DNA from: Candidatus Babeliales bacterium | GTDB lineage: Bacteria; Babelota; Babeliae; Babelales; JANWKD01 | Length of the DNA stretch: 64,000 nt | NCBI GenBank assembly: GCA_963722075.1 | Contig: CAVRJM010000001.1 | Span: 480,001 to 544,000, forward strand | Reading direction: 5' to 3' | Shown here: positions 2,679 to 15,377 of the stretch, in pieces | Layout: the number at the start of each line of letters is the position of its first letter | Position numbering within the stretch: the first letter of the stretch is position 1 | Translations under genes and position numbers: made by a program | Notes under the pieces: generated by a model | Told to the model about the DNA's origin: nothing | Seen by the model: only the letters and a program-made list of their open reading frames with translations | Databases searched by the model: none

Positions 2679-3686
2679 TTATATAATTCCACTTTTGAAG
2701 CTATCTACTAATCTTTGTTTTTCCTGTTCATTTTTTTGTTCTTCTTGTCTTTGATGCTCTTTAAGTAACTTCGCTCTTAAAGTGTTGCATTGCCATATTT
2801 CTTCACATTTTTTATCACTTAATAAAACATTCCATGAATTATCACAATTATCTGCAATTGAGACATCAGGCGCGCAAGCTAGAAGCGCATCAGCACATTC
2901 AAAAAAAGACTCTTTTTCATCTTCTTCTTTATCTGGATCTACCATAGCAACTTGTTTAACAAGCTTAAGCAGCGGTGTATCGCCTTTATTATTCTGTATA
3001 TTAACATTCGCCCCAGCTTGCAATAATAATTTCAGCGCTTCTAAGTTTTCAGTTTTAATTGCGTAATGTAATGGTGTATTTCCTCGAAAATCTTGCTTGT
3101 TAACATTTGCTCCCCAGCGAAGTAATGCGGTAACAGCATGCACAACTTTTTGCTTATGGTTATTATTATTAATATCAAAATCAGAGTAGCATTTTTTAGT
3201 AAGAATCCAATGAAGTAATTTATGAGATTTGTTATTATAAACATCTTTATTAACATCGGTAATTTTATATGCTGAATATCGTTTTAAAAATTTTTCTAAA
3301 ACTATAGGCTTTACTACAGATCTAGATCCATAATAATCCCTAAAATAATCCCCTAAAGCCGTTCTTGCAGGAATTTCAGTTATTAATTTTTCAATAGTTT
3401 CTTTTTTTGGCATTAAACTTTCAATATATCTATTGCGTGCTTGGGTAAATATGGCAGGTTTATGTAACTCATGCTCCCAAAGTATTTCAAATCCTTTAGC
3501 TAAATTATAAGCAATCTGTGATCTATTTTTTTGTTGATGCGTTCTTATTAATCCACTATATATTTTTGTAACTTCTGAAAATCTATTTAGACCTTGCTGT
3601 TGGTTTATAAAAGGAATCCAATCAACCCATCCGGCCGTTACGATTTGAAATGTCGTTAAAAAGGCGAATATAGTTATTTTTTTCAT
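2679..3686 (-). CDS. Secreted ankyrin-repeat protein
   Basis: GANVNKQDFRGNTPLHYA and GANVNIQNNKGDTPLL repeats. Start refined to MKKITIF (ATG at 3686, GAGG upstream). Confidence 0.9.
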   Translation of the reverse strand: MKKITIFAFLTTFQIVTAGWVDWIPFINQQQGLNRFSEVTKIYSGLIRTHQQKNRSQIAYNLAKGFEILWEHELHKPAIFTQARNRYIESLMPKKETIEKLITEIPARTALGDYFRDYYGSRSVVKPIVLEKFLKRYSAYKITDVNKDVYNNKSHKLLHWILTKKCYSDFDINNNNHKQKVVHAVTALLRWGANVNKQDFRGNTPLHYAIKTENLEALKLLLQAGANVNIQNNKGDTPLLKLVKQVAMVDPDKEEDEKESFFECADALLACAPDVSIADNCDNSWNVLLSDKKCEEIWQCNTLRAKLLKEHQRQEEQKNEQEKQRLVDSFKSGII

Positions 3687-3789
3687 ATTAATACCTCTAT
3701 TTTTCTTAATTATTTTATATATCAACACAACTTACTAATTGTCAAATATGTGCCCTGCTCAATTATAGGTCTTTTCTCCCCACCCTATT

Positions 3790-5205
3790 TTATTCAAACC
3801 ACATAGATTTAGTTAAATCTGTCTGATTTAAAGTGGATTGATTTAAAGAAGAACTGGAACTTGCCGAAGAAGTCGAACTCGATGGTATAAAGTTACCAGG
3901 GATCATACAAAAATCGCTACTATCATTTAAATTGTTAAGTAGATTATTAATCGAATTTTCATAATTCATAATATCAGCACGAATGGTATCTGGATAAGTT
4001 CTACTGGTATATCGTTTAGTTTTTTCTAAAATAGATCTAACGCTATCTCCCTTACTATCCTTTAAGTCAAAATTAAGAATAGGTCTATAAGAAGTATTAA
4101 GCATTACATTTATACATTTTGCGTAATCGACATTCATTCGACTAAATGGATCATTATTTACATGTGCAGACTTATCATCAGCAGCTTGTAGGGTTTCAAT
4201 AGCCTTAATAGCAAATAATAAAGGTGTTTCTTCTTTATTATTTTGAATATTTGCATTAGCCCCTTTTTCTAATAATAATTTTACTGCGGCATGATTTTCA
4301 TGCTTCATTGCATAATGTAATGGCGTATTTCCTCTACCATCCTGTCCATTTACATCCGCTCCTGCTTCAATTAATATTTTTATCGCATTTAAACTATGTT
4401 TATTTTTTAAAGCCATATGCAAAGGCATTCGCTCTCTATAATCCTTCTTATTTACTTCAGCGCCCCATTTTATGAGCGCATAAGTAAATAATTCAAGCTT
4501 TTCTTTTCTTTTAGATAAATTACCGGTTAAAAATTTATTGCTGAATATAAAATGTAACCATGAAGTTGCTTTAAAACTTCTACTTCCCTCAACTAATTGA
4601 TTTTCTCGAGGAACTTCATTTACATTGCCAATTTGATATCGTTTTGGAAAATTATCAATTACTACATCCAAATGCCTTCCTTTTTTTACATTTAATAATG
4701 CATTTAACGCAATCAATACGGGATATTGTCTTTTGTCAGCATTTTCATTTTTTATAGACTGGCATTTGATCAACGCTTCAGTTGGCGATTTTTTTGGCCT
4801 TTTGTTTTTTGATATGTTTTTTCCTGTATATAATGGTGTAGGTTCGTACAATGAACGAACATGGCTATGAGATTTTTCATGAGAGGTTTTTATATCTTCT
4901 TTGATATCGTTTTTTTGCTTATCAACCCATGGAGCATTATAAAACCCTTTTAGTAATTCCCACGCAGGACGACGCCAATTTTTTTTCTCATCATTAATTT
5001 TTTCAGATACATCATCTAGGCTTTGAATAGCTTGATCATTCGATTTAAGTGCAGAATTAATCTGATATTGTTGAGCATACTTAAATGGGCTTGATAATTG
5101 ATAGGCGACTTCTTTCATCCCCAAAAGTGTTATCCAACTATTAGATTGCTCACCATTGACTAGTTGAAATCCTATTAAAACAGTTAAAAATGCTATTTTT
5201 TTCAT
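3790..5205 (-). CDS. Secreted ankyrin-repeat protein, paralog of 2679..3686
   Basis: GAEVNKKD..MPLHMA, GADVNGQDGRGNTPLHYA and GANANIQNNKEETPL repeats. Signal peptide MKKIAFLTVL and a Ser-rich tail. Confidence 0.9.
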   Translation of the reverse strand: MKKIAFLTVLIGFQLVNGEQSNSWITLLGMKEVAYQLSSPFKYAQQYQINSALKSNDQAIQSLDDVSEKINDEKKNWRRPAWELLKGFYNAPWVDKQKNDIKEDIKTSHEKSHSHVRSLYEPTPLYTGKNISKNKRPKKSPTEALIKCQSIKNENADKRQYPVLIALNALLNVKKGRHLDVVIDNFPKRYQIGNVNEVPRENQLVEGSRSFKATSWLHFIFSNKFLTGNLSKRKEKLELFTYALIKWGAEVNKKDYRERMPLHMALKNKHSLNAIKILIEAGADVNGQDGRGNTPLHYAMKHENHAAVKLLLEKGANANIQNNKEETPLLFAIKAIETLQAADDKSAHVNNDPFSRMNVDYAKCINVMLNTSYRPILNFDLKDSKGDSVRSILEKTKRYTSRTYPDTIRADIMNYENSINNLLNNLNDSSDFCMIPGNFIPSSSTSSASSSSSLNQSTLNQTDLTKSMWFE

Positions 5206-5241
5206 ATAAATACCCTCAATTCTATTAGAATTATTTTACTT

Positions 5242-5272
5242 ATACAATACAGCATAATTTACTAATTGTCAA
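5242..5272 (-). promoter_or_regulatory. Sigma70-like promoter of the ankyrin gene
   Basis: Minus strand TTGACA-17 nt-TATTGT with a TG extension. The same TATTTGACAATTAGTAA core lies upstream of the paralog at about 3732-3748. Confidence 0.55.
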
Positions 5273-5296
5273 ATAAGAACAGGGGTAATTATAGGT

Positions 5297-7306
5297 TTAT
5301 GCAGCGGTAGTTGTGGTAAGCACAGCCATCTGATTAAGTGCTTTGCCAATGTTAGCGTGAAGCTCATTATGTTCAAAAGCATCTAACAGTTCTTTTTTAG
5401 TGGTATCGTAAAATGCTTTATATTTAGTAACTGCCTTTTGACTCATAACCGCTAAAGAATTTAAGCTCGGTTCTTCATGCCCCTGCATATAGCGACCATG
5501 AGCAGAAAAATATGCCCCTTCTTTATTCTTAAAGAAGATTCTAACTAATGAATCTCCCTCTATTTGCACCAGCATGTCATATACCGTTACTGCATTATCA
5601 CCAGCATTGAGGATTTTTGCCTCAACTGAATCAGGATCATTGGCAAGAACAAACTCATTAATAAGATACGATTTATTAAAACAGCTCAGTGACAGCGGCC
5701 AAAAGCCTTTTAATAAATCGATAGCATAATATTGAGGCGCTTCAATCTTTTCAATATAGTGAGATGCGCAGCCAGGTAAAACCGAAATAAAGCGAGGATA
5801 AGGGGTATTATTCGTAGATTTAATAATAAGGGGAACCGATATTACCGGTGATTCTATTAATACATTATAATGATCGGTGATTTGTATGGGTAATTGTAAT
5901 TGCTGTTTTAAGCACGCCAATAACGGACTGATTTTAAATACCGTAGAGCTTTGATAAATCATAAAATGAGTACCATTTATAGGACGTATATTAGGCTCTG
6001 TTTCAATAAATTGCGGACTAATAAGCCGCCATATTTCATTATTAGCTAATTTTTCTACTTCATTAATTTTATCAATACGATTAATCATGCTAAAAAACTT
6101 TTTAATGTTAATATTAAGGAGCAATTTTAATGACCACATATTTGATAGCTGATCTAGTTCATAATAATCAATATTAAACTTATTTTCCTCTACTATTGGT
6201 AAAACAAATCCGCTATTAGTGCAATACGTAGGAATATCGGTACTATTATTAATAATAATAGGAAAATTAAAGCAATCTGGTTTGCCATCAGTGCAATATG
6301 GTTCATCCAAATGAGCTCCTGCACCAAAACAAGTAGAATAACCAAAAACGCCCATAGTAATTTTATTATTCATAAAAAGCAGAAACTTTTTAAATTCACT
6401 CACCGATAAATTACCGATTAATTCAAATTTTTCATTATTATTAGGATAAATCGGCTCCATGTTATACCCATGGCCAACTAAAAATATATCCCAGATATAT
6501 TGTGCCTTACTTCTAAATGGTGAAATAAAGATACGCTCTATTGCCGTTAAAAAATCGCCCTCTGGGCGAGCCGTTGGTTCAAAACTAACAAGCGAACTAT
6601 CACACGGATCATCAACTCGTTCCAATGAGTTCACAGATAACCCTAAAAGTTGTTCATAGTCTTTACCGGCTAACGGAACTTCTTGATTATTATTTTTTTT
6701 TGCCAATTTTTGTATATAGTTCTTTGGTATAAATAGATAATAAAAATCAGTTACTTGATATACATCCCAATCTGCTTCATTAAATTCAAATAAATAAAAA
6801 TTAAAATTAACATACAACTCTTCATTATTATCTTGTGGCAACAGCTTTTCATCTTTGAGTTGTGTTAATGCGTTCTCATTACAAAATTCTTCAGTGATCT
6901 GATCAGATACTAATAATTTAATATCGGAAAAATTAGTCGTTTGTTTTTTAAAAAAATCAGTCCAGATGTTTAATTTATTAAGTATTGCCTCATGATGAGC
7001 CTTTAATTTTGCTTCTTTAGTATTGGGTATTTGAGAGCGTAAAGAGAATTCTTGTTTACGTTCAAGGAAATTTCTCCATATACACGTAGATACAAGCATT
7101 GGAACTGATTTTTGATGAAGTGCCGCAGTCAAAAAAGCAGAAGCAAACAATCGTTGACTTGATGAACCAATACGTTCAACATTTTGACTGTTCAATATCA
7201 ACAAGTTTCTTTGCTCTTTGTTTATTTGAGTTGCATTAATTTTTGTATAAGCTGCTGAAATAAAAAAAATAAAAGAAAAAAAACGTAGGGTTAAATACAT
7301 TTTCAT
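5297..7306 (-). CDS. Secreted hypothetical protein, possible clan CD (caspase/C80-like) cysteine peptidase domain
   Basis: Signal peptide. WDIFLVGHG and GVFGYSTCFG give a His/Cys dyad-like spacing. Confidence 0.55.
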   Translation of the reverse strand: MKMYLTLRFFSFIFFISAAYTKINATQINKEQRNLLILNSQNVERIGSSSQRLFASAFLTAALHQKSVPMLVSTCIWRNFLERKQEFSLRSQIPNTKEAKLKAHHEAILNKLNIWTDFFKKQTTNFSDIKLLVSDQITEEFCNENALTQLKDEKLLPQDNNEELYVNFNFYLFEFNEADWDVYQVTDFYYLFIPKNYIQKLAKKNNNQEVPLAGKDYEQLLGLSVNSLERVDDPCDSSLVSFEPTARPEGDFLTAIERIFISPFRSKAQYIWDIFLVGHGYNMEPIYPNNNEKFELIGNLSVSEFKKFLLFMNNKITMGVFGYSTCFGAGAHLDEPYCTDGKPDCFNFPIIINNSTDIPTYCTNSGFVLPIVEENKFNIDYYELDQLSNMWSLKLLLNINIKKFFSMINRIDKINEVEKLANNEIWRLISPQFIETEPNIRPINGTHFMIYQSSTVFKISPLLACLKQQLQLPIQITDHYNVLIESPVISVPLIIKSTNNTPYPRFISVLPGCASHYIEKIEAPQYYAIDLLKGFWPLSLSCFNKSYLINEFVLANDPDSVEAKILNAGDNAVTVYDMLVQIEGDSLVRIFFKNKEGAYFSAHGRYMQGHEEPSLNSLAVMSQKAVTKYKAFYDTTKKELLDAFEHNELHANIGKALNQMAVLTTTTAA

Positions 7307-10587: not shown

Positions 10588-10842
10588 GACCGTTCCCCTC
10601 ATAAAACAAATTAATAATAGACATAAGATATATTTAAGGTATCAACTTTTATTTCAAACAGTCAATAAATTTGGCAGATAAGTACTTTTCTTGGGAGGTG
10701 AATGAAAACAAATAATAGGTGATTAAGCAAAAGACGTCGTTGCGATCTTATTGGATTTCTCCAAGGCCACTTGGAACTCGGGCAAACGCACCAAATGTTA
10801 CGCGATAAATTAAAATGAAGAATATTAATTTGGCCTTGAGCC

Positions 10843-10930: not shown

Positions 10931-10947
10931 GATCGAAAAAAAAGTAC

Positions 10948-11112
10948 GTCGTTGCGAGCTTGTCGAAGCAATCCAGGTTAAATTAAATGATACCAAGTTA
11001 TAGAAGGCCAATAAAGTTGTGTTAAATTATTAAACAATTCAAAAATTTCTTCATATAAAAATAACAAATAATGTTAATAAATACTGGATTGCTTCGACAA
11101 GCTCGCAACGAC
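10948..11112. repeat. Inverted doublet of CGTC/GTC-type REP-like palindromes (REPIN/MITE-like)
   Basis: Perfect 29-bp inverted repeat gtcgttgcgagcttgtcgaagcaatccag (10948-10976 / 11084-11112) around a 107-bp AT-rich spacer. Confidence 0.9.
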
Positions 11113-11197
11113 ATACATTCGTAAATTTACATCATCATGCAAAAATTCAGCATCCATTAGTGAATTATATTTAAGGTATAAAAGTTCTAAATACCAA

Positions 11198-12823
11198 CTA
11201 ACTAGACGGAAGTAAGAAATTATAATTAAAATACATGCGTTGAATCGTATGCAGTTTTTGAGTAACGCTCATTGAAGCATCTTCCAAATGAGCAATATCT
11301 TCAAGTATCATAATTTGCTCGTCAATATTCATTTGAGAAGTATGTTTTTTAAATTGTTCAAGCCAGTAATGGCAATACCCTTGATCAATTAATGAAACGG
11401 CAGATACATCACTTAAATATTTATTGTAAATAATATCTAAATTTCGTAATGCTTTGCGTAATGGCTCATACGTATTTTTTTGTAGCATAATGTGTACAAA
11501 AAGTTTCTTAGCAAGGGAATACGTACCATATAAAACTAACGCTGATGGTAATATGGCAGCTATTTCAAAATTAAATTTATTAGCATTAAATTGCGTTTCT
11601 CCTTCTAATGCTATTTTACTTCCCATTAATAATGATGCTTGAAATAACATATAACATAAAACTCCCATCTTTTTTACCTGAGGAAACAGTTCTGCAATTT
11701 CGGAAGCTTTTTTAGTAATTATTTCCAACCTTGCTATAGCAACATTAAACCGTTCAATAGATTTTTTATCTCCAGTAATCCATCTTAGAGCACTGGCACC
11801 ATACGAATCATCTTTCACATATGAATCTAGTTCTATCTTTAATTCTTCAACATCACTTTGTTTTTTATCTATAGCTTGAACAATATCATTTAATTCATTC
11901 ATAATAAATTCAATATTGCCAGTCTTAACCTCTTTAATAATCCCTTCAATTTCTTCAGAAGAATATGGTAAATTGTTGGTTTCTATATATGAGCGCACCT
12001 GAAGTTCTAATAAATTTCCACAAGATTGAACACCTTTTTTAGTTATTACCGGATCACGATCACGTCGCAAAAGCGCCTTTAGTGATTTTACAATCGGCGC
12101 GGATATGTGCTCATCATAATACTTTTTAACCGCATCAAAAGCCATATCAGACCAGTTTTTTAAATTATTTTTATTTTGATGAATAAAATAACCCATTCCT
12201 AATGAGCTTGTTACCAGAAGAAAATAGGCAATCCAATTCCGTTGAAAATGATTAGGTTTACTACAATGCGCGCAGGAATATAACGCATTTTTTTTGTAAT
12301 TTTTTATCCATAATTCAATGCGTTTAAGCCGCTCTTCAACCACACCACTTTGTGCGGTTTTATTGCTTATAACAGTATAACGAAATAAACAGGATTCAAG
12401 AGCATCAATCATAGCATCTGCTAGTTCAGGAGAATAAGTCGCCGTTTGAATGTAGTGTTTAAAGAGCGCTAAATAATAGGCATTGTGCTCTTGCTCTTGT
12501 TGTAAGTACTGTAAATATTCATCAATTTTGCGCCATTCCTTTTTACGGTAAATCCATTTGCTAGGATCTTTTGAAAGAAAATAGCTAAACGGCATTAATT
12601 GCTGTTTTTTCCAGTAATGGGTGTTTAATAGGAACTGATGTAATACCTCAATAAGGATAGGGCATAATTGCTCCATTTGATCAAGCACCTTGTTAAACAC
12701 TACTTTATTTTCATATTCCTTAATAATACGAGCTGTTTTTTCATTTTCTAATAGCAATAAAGAATCGGTACCATTTATACTTAAAAAGACTAGTAAAAGT
12801 ACACTAAAAATATAATTAACCAT
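11198..12823 (-). CDS. NCA2/DGS1-like membrane protein
   Basis: KPNHFQRNW..Y, NW...A..A...Y.DEH...P, ANKFNFEIAAILP and KLHTIQRMYFNYNFLLP parallel recalled plant DGS1 / NCA2-domain motifs. Start refined to MVNYIF. Confidence 0.7.
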   Translation of the reverse strand: MVNYIFSVLLLVFLSINGTDSLLLLENEKTARIIKEYENKVVFNKVLDQMEQLCPILIEVLHQFLLNTHYWKKQQLMPFSYFLSKDPSKWIYRKKEWRKIDEYLQYLQQEQEHNAYYLALFKHYIQTATYSPELADAMIDALESCLFRYTVISNKTAQSGVVEERLKRIELWIKNYKKNALYSCAHCSKPNHFQRNWIAYFLLVTSSLGMGYFIHQNKNNLKNWSDMAFDAVKKYYDEHISAPIVKSLKALLRRDRDPVITKKGVQSCGNLLELQVRSYIETNNLPYSSEEIEGIIKEVKTGNIEFIMNELNDIVQAIDKKQSDVEELKIELDSYVKDDSYGASALRWITGDKKSIERFNVAIARLEIITKKASEIAELFPQVKKMGVLCYMLFQASLLMGSKIALEGETQFNANKFNFEIAAILPSALVLYGTYSLAKKLFVHIMLQKNTYEPLRKALRNLDIIYNKYLSDVSAVSLIDQGYCHYWLEQFKKHTSQMNIDEQIMILEDIAHLEDASMSVTQKLHTIQRMYFNYNFLLPSS

Positions 12824-12892
12824 GCTAAAAACCTTTCTTTGAGTAATTAACGTACCATAAAATGAGCTCAACAGCCAATATATGATACGAGC

Positions 12893-13390: not shown

Positions 13391-14032
13391 TTATAATTTA
13401 GCAATAGTCATAAGTTTATTAATCGATCCAGCAAATACTACTGTTTCATCTGCGTTAATAGTATAATCGGAATTAATAGGGATAATATCTTCGCCTTTTT
13501 TAACACCAATACAACGCGCTTGATAACGGTCAAATAATTTTAATGATTGAACGGTTTTACCCACAAATTTTTCAGGAGCCGTAATTTGAATAATCCCAAA
13601 ATTAGCAGTTATGCGTACCAATTGAGCATATGGATAGCTTAAACTATCGGCTAAGCGAACGCCAACTTCTTGCTCTGGTAATATTACTTGATCAGCGCCA
13701 ATCAGTTTTAAAATTTCCTTATGAATTTCGCTAACGGCACGGGTAATAACCATCGGAATATTAAGACGTTTTTTTAATAATGCGGTTACCAAAATAGATT
13801 GCGCAAAATTTTCACCCATCGCCACAATAACTATATCCATTTCCTCAACACCCAGTGATCGCAATGCGGCTTCATCATTCACCCGTAAACAAATTGCTTG
13901 AGTTATTTGATCACGAATAGAGGAAACGATTGATTCGTTGCTATCAATACCTAATACTTCCATGCCATTATCTGCCAATGTGGTAGCAACCCGATACCCA
14001 AATCTACCCAACCCTATAACACAAAATTTCAT
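13391..14032 (-). CDS. trkA: TrkA/KtrA-family K+ uptake NAD-binding subunit
   Basis: FCVIGLGRFG Rossmann motif, IGADQVILPE and a TrkA-C domain. Confidence 0.93.
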   Translation of the reverse strand: MKFCVIGLGRFGYRVATTLADNGMEVLGIDSNESIVSSIRDQITQAICLRVNDEAALRSLGVEEMDIVIVAMGENFAQSILVTALLKKRLNIPMVITRAVSEIHKEILKLIGADQVILPEQEVGVRLADSLSYPYAQLVRITANFGIIQITAPEKFVGKTVQSLKLFDRYQARCIGVKKGEDIIPINSDYTINADETVVFAGSINKLMTIAKL

Positions 14033-14051
14033 GTAAGATCCTTATTATACT

Positions 14052-15377
14052 TTAACCAATTAATACTCGTTCTTCAGGATACGAAAATTCTGGCAATTCA
14101 TGACGTTTATATAATGCAAGAACAAATGCTAAAGCACCAATACGCCCTATAATCATTGTCAAAATTATAAAAATCTTACCTATAGCTGATAAATAAGGCG
14201 TTATACCTAAAGAAAGTCCTAATGTTGCAAAAGCAGAAACAACTTCAAATAAAATTTCTATAAATGACCAATCCTTTTCAGTAATTAATAAAAAGAATGT
14301 TGTAATAATAATCCAAATTAATGAAAGAAATGTAATTGCAATTGCTTTATATAACTGATCTATTGCAATAGACCTCCCCATAAGTGAAACATTTGTTCTC
14401 CCAATCACTGCTGCCTTTATAAACCCGATGCATAGTGCAAATGTGGTAACTTTTATACCTCCTCCAGTTGATAGAGGTGCTACACCAATAAAAGATAAAA
14501 TTATTATCAATAAGATTGTAGCTAATTGCAATTGATTTGTTTGAATTGTAGTAAACCCCGTACCACGACTTGAAATGGCATTATAAAGAGCATTTACTAT
14601 TGCCGTAAGGGGATTCATTTCAGCAAAGGTATTGTGATGCTCTAACATCCAATAAAGTAGTGCTCCACTTACAACTATAAAAATAGTCATATATACCATT
14701 ACTTTTGTTTGTAATGAAAAATGAAATCTTTTTTTATTACCAATGCTTTTCATATAGTTAAAAATTTCATTCCAAGCAATAAATCCTAGCATGCCAGATA
14801 ACATAATAAAACAGTTACCCAATAATAATATTAAATTATCTTTATAGGGAATCATACCTTCAGGAAATAAAGAAATTCCTGCATCACAAAACGTAGATAC
14901 TGCATGAAAAAAAGATAAAAAAAGAGCTCGTAAAAAAGAATAGTCATTATAAATATTAAAAAAGAAAATAACGGTACCAAGTACTTCTATAAAAAAAGTA
15001 AAAAATATAATAAAATAAATAAATTTTTTAATATCTCTTAATGATTCCAAGTCAAGCACTTGTCCAGCCATAACTTGGGTTGAAAAAGATGGATTAACAA
15101 AAAATAATATGAAAAAAAAAGTTACAATTCCTAACCCACCAATTTGAATAAGGAGCAACACTATACATTGACCCAAAAAAGTAAATTCGATACAAGGTAC
15201 GGTAGTTAATCCACAAGTACACAAACATGTTGCTGAAGTAAATAAGGCATCTATCCACGAGATTACACCGGTATGGCAAAAGGGTAATTTAAGTAGTATT
15301 GTTCCGCATGCTATTGCTATTAAAGTAAACATAAATATTAATCGTGCAGGTGAAACGTGCGCCATAGAATGCGGCAT
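14052..15377 (-). CDS. trkH: TrkH/KtrB-family K+ uptake membrane subunit
   Basis: ALFTSATCLCTCGL, LIQIGGLG, STGGGIKVTT, FEVVSAFATLGLSLG and MIIGRIG. Confidence 0.93.
   Translation of the reverse strand: MPHSMAHVSPARLIFMFTLIAIACGTILLKLPFCHTGVISWIDALFTSATCLCTCGLTTVPCIEFTFLGQCIVLLLIQIGGLGIVTFFFILFFVNPSFSTQVMAGQVLDLESLRDIKKFIYFIIFFTFFIEVLGTVIFFFNIYNDYSFLRALFLSFFHAVSTFCDAGISLFPEGMIPYKDNLILLLGNCFIMLSGMLGFIAWNEIFNYMKSIGNKKRFHFSLQTKVMVYMTIFIVVSGALLYWMLEHHNTFAEMNPLTAIVNALYNAISSRGTGFTTIQTNQLQLATILLIIILSFIGVAPLSTGGGIKVTTFALCIGFIKAAVIGRTNVSLMGRSIAIDQLYKAIAITFLSLIWIIITTFFLLITEKDWSFIEILFEVVSAFATLGLSLGITPYLSAIGKIFIILTMIIGRIGALAFVLALYKRHELPEFSYPEERVLIG

Follow-up and report, generated by a model that had tools for sequence, protein, structure and literature searches.

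A bacterial homolog of the eukaryotic mitochondrial Nca2/DGS1 family is encoded at positions 11198..12823 on the minus strand of the window, i.e., the whole stretch of 64,000 nucleotides that was analyzed. The ORF has no introns and a single stop, located at its end, and its product of 541 aa is all-helical in the predicted model. The Pfam NCA2 profile (PF08637), named as a check by the original prediction, matches the protein in two stretches at 63.1 bits, three times the cut-off of 20.6 (E = 3.3e-17), and matches none of 14 control genomes. The predicted family membership is thereby supported by a profile search, and likewise by single-sequence and profile-profile searches. When 1.84 billion representative proteins were searched with phmmer, 219 matches were obtained at E 0.001; among the 150 of these from which the composition was read, 140 are bacterial-type and 10 score higher on the eukaryotic than on the bacterial profile. 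The latter include “Nuclear control of ATPase protein 2” of Planoprotostelium fungivorum (PRP86275.1, E = 1.5e-15) and the mitochondrial Nca2 of Andalucia godoyi (KAF0852175.1, E = 1.5e-6, 21% identity over 364 columns), and others are named by their source as Willaertia magna and, via a cluster member, a relative of Diacronema lutheri. In the NCA2 set of the ESM Atlas, the three clusters shown among the at least 30 matches listed are 100% eukaryotic. Searches elsewhere were silent: Foldseek with the predicted model found no match at E 0.001 in the PDB or among viral models, VIA-align reached its best Z of 9.5 on generic helical bundles only, a PDB sequence search returned nothing under E 0.001 and no solved Nca2 structure, and no NCBIfam family matched the 541-aa protein. 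The homology of the bacterial protein to mitochondrial Nca2/DGS1 is real. From it we infer, as the most probable reading and at about even odds, a secreted or surface-exposed membrane scaffold or tether that would act at host mitochondria, each step past homology being conditional.

All four motifs named in the original prediction for DGS1 and the NCA2 domain are found in the translated ORF, in the order stated. The motif KPNHFQRNWIAY occupies residues 189-200 and is overlapped by a first, weakly hydrophobic segment at residues 197-215 (together residues 189-215; 12179..12259, minus strand, as for all features of this protein). NW..A ... H...P corresponds to residues 223-243, ANKFNFEIAAILP lies at residues 414-426 with a second hydrophobic segment at residues 419-437 (11513..11569) containing the conserved P426, and the C-terminal end reads D509...L513...QK(522-523)L...QRMY..Y534.FLLP. 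The first Pfam stretch (profile 10-111) maps to 11894..12190 and the second (profile 155-289, residues 413-534) to 11222..11587, the latter taking in the C-terminal four-helix bundle and the end motif QK..I.RMY..Y.FL. The likeness had been placed in the C-terminal half; it is present there but not confined to it, since an hhalign comparison of 79 bacterial with 8 eukaryote-type rows (probability 100, E = 1.7e-43, 423 columns) spans residues 53-540. The N-terminal helical domain (about residues 53-183; 12275..12667), which carries a YW...P...KxP.KW motif and lies beyond the Pfam model, is therefore homologous too. In the predicted model (pLDDT 83, pTM 0.62, from a 35-row alignment), a leader helix is followed by an N-terminal bundle, a helix at 197-216, a long helical middle, a long helix across the second hydrophobic segment, and the C-terminal bundle. 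An upstream TTG start at 12871 was dropped in favor of the ATG because a homolog with 76% identity (P0002) aligns from the ATG region and AAAGG stands just before the ATG.

The most conserved positions across the family are W71, P190, R195, P426, G482 and K523, which appear to be structural and not a catalytic set; as no catalytic residues are evident, a scaffold and not an enzyme is predicted. YW, KPxHFxRNW, P426, G482 and QK..I.RMY..Y.FL are common to bacteria and eukaryotes. The eukaryotic middle motif, YEKEI..PI.N...GDL..L.LIQ.QK, is worn in most bacterial members and is here weak and split by an insert, so that binding of a host partner may have been lost. It is recognizable in two genomes of the same family, L003 and L004, whose loci (L003:1483-3072 and L004:1480-3066) hold its best-kept form together with the top Pfam scores (77.7 and 72.4 bits). 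Loss of the middle motif, the low identity to eukaryotic members (as to Andalucia Nca2 above) and the range of 416-787 aa among bacterial members would also suit an exported protein that has drifted to another target, the vacuole or some other host membrane, as a membrane-inserting helical hairpin. The residues that bacteria and eukaryotes both retain argue instead for the same core action, and we consider such a drift quite improbable. Compared with eukaryotic Nca2/DGS1 (yeast, Arabidopsis DGD1 SUPPRESSOR1, Andalucia and Planoprotostelium), the Babelota protein shares the motif order, the two hydrophobic segments, the YW domain and the end motif, and differs in its intron-free gene, an added hydrophobic leader, the eroded middle motif and an identity of about 21%.

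The “bacterial signal peptide” of the original prediction holds in part: by our own Kyte-Doolittle hydropathy rule, a putative signal-peptide-like N-terminus (residues 1-18; 12770..12823) has a hydrophobic core at residues 5-14, but no basic residue precedes it. The rule is passed by 66 of 79 bacterial members, by 117 of the 140 bacterial-type proteins among the 150 of 219 phmmer matches, and, for the first 35 members, by 31/35 against 4/35 and 0/35 of internal-start controls. Since 49% of the ORFs in the source genome pass as well, the rule says little alone. Among the eukaryote-type matches 2/10 pass, both apparently truncated. Among the ankyrin-like ORFs of the genome 22/25 pass, thus such an N-terminus is the look of host-directed proteins here. 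In DGS1, one putative membrane segment precedes the Pfam domain and another lies within it. The two segments of the 541-aa protein, with hydropathies of 1.27 (197-215) and 1.38 (419-437), both align with the eukaryotic ones. Over 79 members the first is weak (median 1.06, with 12/79 reaching 1.6) and the second moderate (median 1.64, with 43/79 reaching 1.6), compared with maxima of 2.3-2.6 for three typical membrane proteins encoded in the window. A leader plus two hydrophobic segments, seen in nearly all members, is how inner-membrane proteins are normally built and counts against export. The main competing explanation is accordingly a protein that stays in the parasite envelope, anchored in the inner membrane by two helices, with both terminal bundles facing the periplasm; there it would bridge the inner and outer membranes or move scavenged lipids, comparable to DGS1 at the contact sites of the two mitochondrial membranes. 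We rate it a serious contender, though somewhat less probable than an even chance; a bacterial stop-transfer sequence would be expected to be more hydrophobic than the first segment, and further points on both sides come from the distribution and descent of the gene.

Babelota, the phylum of the source genome, are inhabitants of single-celled eukaryotes. The gene lies on a bacterial contig of 1,418,565 bp in a genome of the order Babeliales rated 99% complete, in housekeeping surroundings: an amidase with dnaA on one side and rplU (ribosomal protein L21; 12973..13320, plus strand; Pfam) on the other, as a divergent upstream neighbor whose adjacency is kept in six families. Beyond rplU lies a trkA/trkH-like potassium uptake pair (13391..15377, minus strand; named from reading translations), part of a trkH-trkA-rplU-NCA2 block. 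Against 836 mechanically called ORFs of at least 200 aa in the genome, codon use is ordinary (61st percentile) and GC content lowish (13th percentile). Spurious profile matches are known for helical proteins, and these together with the low GC could suggest an artefact or recent accident, i.e., eukaryotic contamination, a chance helical match, or a decaying recent transfer from a host. This explanation is refuted: the flanks on a 1.42-Mb contig, the intron-free ORF and its ordinary codon use, 100 intact homologues with synteny, reciprocal matches to annotated Nca2 (E = 1.5e-15 among the 1.84 billion proteins) and the rejection of recent transfer by approximately unbiased (AU) tests all stand against it.

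The genome contains three ADP/ATP translocase-family ORFs, two secretin genes that could provide a route of export across the outer membrane, and 25 ankyrin-like ORFs; no FabF/B and no VirB4-family match was found in it, and these features together point to an intracellular parasite or symbiont. The mitochondrial carrier family gave no match in the genome, but the positive control was equally silent. Beside dnaA (2679-7306), two ankyrin proteins are lined up with a third protein of 669 aa that has no Pfam match, all three with signal-peptide-like starts, and a 176-aa ORF without Pfam match (825-1355) lies between pgk and a secreted-looking protein. Just downstream of the NCA2-family gene lie an imperfect 46-nt inverted repeat (10936-11125, or more narrowly 10941..11119) and a partial extra copy (10729-10749). 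With 150 blastn segments in the genome and no Rfam match, it belongs to a dispersed REP- or MITE-like family that is not tied to this gene.

Of the 261 genomes examined from the phylum, 100 contain a clear homologue, in most cases as a single copy. Pfam alone detected 64/261 carriers, a 35-row profile 101 and a 79-row profile 107; the 100 counted are those at E 6.7e-17 or better, and the other 7 (3.6e-5 or worse, short) were left out. By family, the carriers comprise f1 5/5 (the family of the source genome), f3 15/16, f5 14/14, f7 1/1, f10 1/1, f12 10/10, f16 2/2, f18 11/12, f20 2/4 and f21 39/80, and no homologue at E below 1e-16 was found in f2 (0/41), f17 (0/35) or smaller families, many of these genomes being incomplete. 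Absence from 161/261 genomes, including whole families such as f2 and f17, would be odd for a function in the parasite envelope. The family has a member (P0103; E = 6.5e-8 to the 541-aa protein, Pfam NCA2 39.3 bits) that its sources name as a hypothetical protein of Ca. Chromulinivorax destructor (C. destructans below), WP_115585725.1. Outside the phylum set, a pattern suited to some families only was scanned over 185,579 species genomes, and 8 of 15 stretches were confirmed, 5 labeled Babeliales, Dependentiae or Chromulinivoraceae and 3 Pseudomonadota or Epsilonproteobacteria. The three proteobacterial names are read as deposit labels because these stretches reach E 2e-63 or lower with the Babelota profile and the two that were mapped have family-like neighborhoods. 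Among bacteria, the family is thus likely confined to Babelota, and no more than likely because the pattern fits some families and the 140 bacterial-type matches mostly carry no taxon. No relative was found on viral contigs (bacterial pattern 0/3 stretches, eukaryotic pattern 0/298) or on the plasmids searched.

An association of the gene with fatty-acid auxotrophy, taken as absence of FabF/B, was examined over the 261 genomes and not found: 11/47 genomes with FabF/B carry the NCA2 gene, as do 89/214 without it (kin not being independent), and f18 mostly holds both genes and f2 neither. This result counts against a scaffold acting at host mitochondria. FabF/B itself is limited to f13, f15, f17, f18 and f20 and to one subtree of the MutS tree, and part of the phylum may, judging from these genes, have kept fatty-acid synthesis, in contrast to the seven genomes of the 2016 study.

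In 15 of 58 phylum loci, from six families, the gene is divergent from rplU, often in a trkH-trkA-rplU-NCA2-mutS block (neighbors being named by similarity to window ORFs that were themselves named from translations), and f5, f18 and most of f21 have stable neighborhoods of their own. Such long single-copy retention beside housekeeping genes would favor a resident of the envelope. Tandem pairs with a shorter second copy occur in several genera of f21 (L044, L045, L047, L054, L058, L094). Among mutS loci of genomes without the gene, rplU and mutS adjoin directly, with nothing between, in 5/35, and no diverged homologue was found under E 1e-3 in the rplU-mutS slot of the 35 loci. In one of these genomes (L128:1072-2472), the slot is filled by a 466-aa ORF that reads as an ADP/ATP translocase, which suggests that this slot may receive genes involved in host interaction.

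On a MutS tree of 74 genomes (FastTree), carriers are spread across all main subtrees, implying 12 changes, at least 7 of them forced by strong branches. Where both genes are available (37 genomes), the NCA2 tree has 10 strong splits, of which 8 recur in the MutS tree, another is compatible with it and the last one conflicts. The distribution reads best, from these trees, as a gene probably present near the root of Babeliales, handed down vertically and lost repeatedly; a degree of transfer inside Babeliales is possible. In the same 37 genomes the median pairwise identity is 17.5% for the NCA2 family and 52% for MutS, and the NCA2-family tree is three times as long as that of MutS, which speaks against a purely envelope-bound protein. 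Such fast and patchy evolution, with divergent sequences, tandem copies and empty sites, would be as in host-facing proteins.

The origin of the gene, “host-derived or ancestral” in the original prediction, can be narrowed. A joint FastTree phylogeny places 8 eukaryote-type rows on one side of a short branch (support 95), and a quick LG+C20 search with 46 rows groups 13 eukaryote-type rows (SH-aLRT 85); in both trees, they join an unresolved bacterial backbone. The joint set has no outgroup, as the ESM Atlas without its NCA2 clusters gave no usable match and the tree was left unrooted, and no fungal, plant or animal row was identified in it. Eukaryotic sampling is thin, with 8, 8 and 1 proteins from word-indexed protein searches. 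In AU tests (LG+F+G4 with a fast search; the 5000 replicates are below the number recommended for IQ-TREE), grouping of the source lineage with amoebozoan-like rows (p = 0.011) or discoban-like rows (p = 0.004) is rejected, whereas a sister position of the source lineage to all eukaryotes (0.074), a placement of eukaryotes within f1/f12/f16 (0.17), and bacteria beside Discoba (0.26) or Amoebozoa (0.30) are not rejected. Hence a recent transfer from an amoebozoan-like or discoban-like host does not hold. The distribution and the MutS comparison show an old gene of the order that descended vertically with many losses. For the old exchange with eukaryotes, the trees fit either direction, and host to parasite is the likelier by prior. 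It is conceivable, though we think it improbable, that Nca2/DGS1 passed from a Babelota-like parasite to the proto-eukaryote at a time preceding the last eukaryotic common ancestor, so that a parasite membrane tether would have become a contact-site protein of the mitochondrial outer membrane, by which living Babelota, e.g., C. destructans, would still envelop themselves with host mitochondria.

What eukaryotic Nca2/DGS1 does biochemically is only loosely known. Yeast Nca2 is entered in a published table as a mitochondrial outer-membrane protein (PMC4889329), NCA2 of T. brucei is described with a mitochondrial presequence (PMC9981465), and DGS1, the plant orthologue of Nca2 according to the Andalucia paper (PMC7050145), is reported as an outer-membrane subunit of MICOS/MTL that bridges Tom40/20 and Mic60 and alters lipids and organelle shape (PMC7865480, PMC10069894). 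C. destructans, according to its description, replicates in deep infoldings of a host mitochondrion that is expanded but intact, releases outer-membrane vesicles early, is thought to use host lipids, and has signal sequences on 44% of its proteins (PMC6561590). TM6 bacteria are reported to lack fatty-acid synthesis and to build their membranes from host lipids by an access route called unknown, and parts of type II secretion are core in them (PMC4776705). The need to build membranes out of host lipids (PMC4776705) would suit a lipid-handling protein of the parasite envelope. The presence of the gene in C. destructans, together with its lifestyle, fits with action at host mitochondria.

For a scaffold or tether at host mitochondria, the N-terminus would serve as a Sec signal, and the two merely moderately hydrophobic segments would let the protein exit the inner membrane, by type II secretion or in outer-membrane vesicles. 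At the host, it would insert into the mitochondrial outer membrane as host Nca2 does, or bridge to it from the bacterial surface. The organelle would thus be tethered or reshaped, and the supply of lipid and ATP eased for a parasite that makes no fatty acids. Legionella LncP is a mitochondrial-carrier effector aimed at mitochondria, and effectors of this kind are delivered by type IV secretion, are not known to carry a Sec leader, and have a narrow range. The Babelota protein resembles them as a host mitochondrial family carried by an intracellular bacterium, and differs in having a leader, in the lack of a VirB4-family match in the genome, and in belonging to an old, order-wide family.

A bare NCA2 label is already in print for two TM6 genomes: in a supplementary table of Yeoh et al. 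(2016; PMC4776705), “ATP synthase regulation protein NCA2” is the automatic label of one gene each in SOIL31 and SOIL82, and it is given to none of the other five genomes of that table, including B. massiliensis. These labels concern the same family and phylum; they are two singleton rows without comment, and breadth, age, leader and role are not treated. NCA2 does not appear in the main text of PMC6561590, PMC12172432, PMC4776705 or bioRxiv 10.64898/2026.05.08.723234, although supplements of PMC6561590, PMC4776705 and the preprint may still list the gene, and the matches listed for Babelota literature with “nuclear control of ATPase” or DGS1 held none; the “DGS1” of PMC11371169 is a rice ligase and unrelated. 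The preprint (10.64898/2026.05.08.723234) places Dependentiae as sister to clades that go back to the last eukaryotic common ancestor, with the direction left open, for ubiquitin, transcription, tRNA-synthetase and nucleotide genes shared with Chlamydiota. Here, by comparison, the exchanged gene encodes a mitochondrial membrane protein, and no other bacterial group was seen. For the breadth, age and leader of the family and its link to a mitochondrion-remodelling parasite, no description was found in the literature searched, a body from which most subscription journals fall outside.

As far as that literature shows, a prokaryotic branch of a eukaryote-wide mitochondrial family is described here for the first time. 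The family is a candidate for two stated open questions, the remodelling of the mitochondrion by C. destructans and the acquisition of lipids by TM6 bacteria (PMC6561590, PMC4776705), and it is one named candidate, encoded by a cultured strain. It bears on the age of Babelota parasitism and on which bacteria swapped genes with early eukaryotes.
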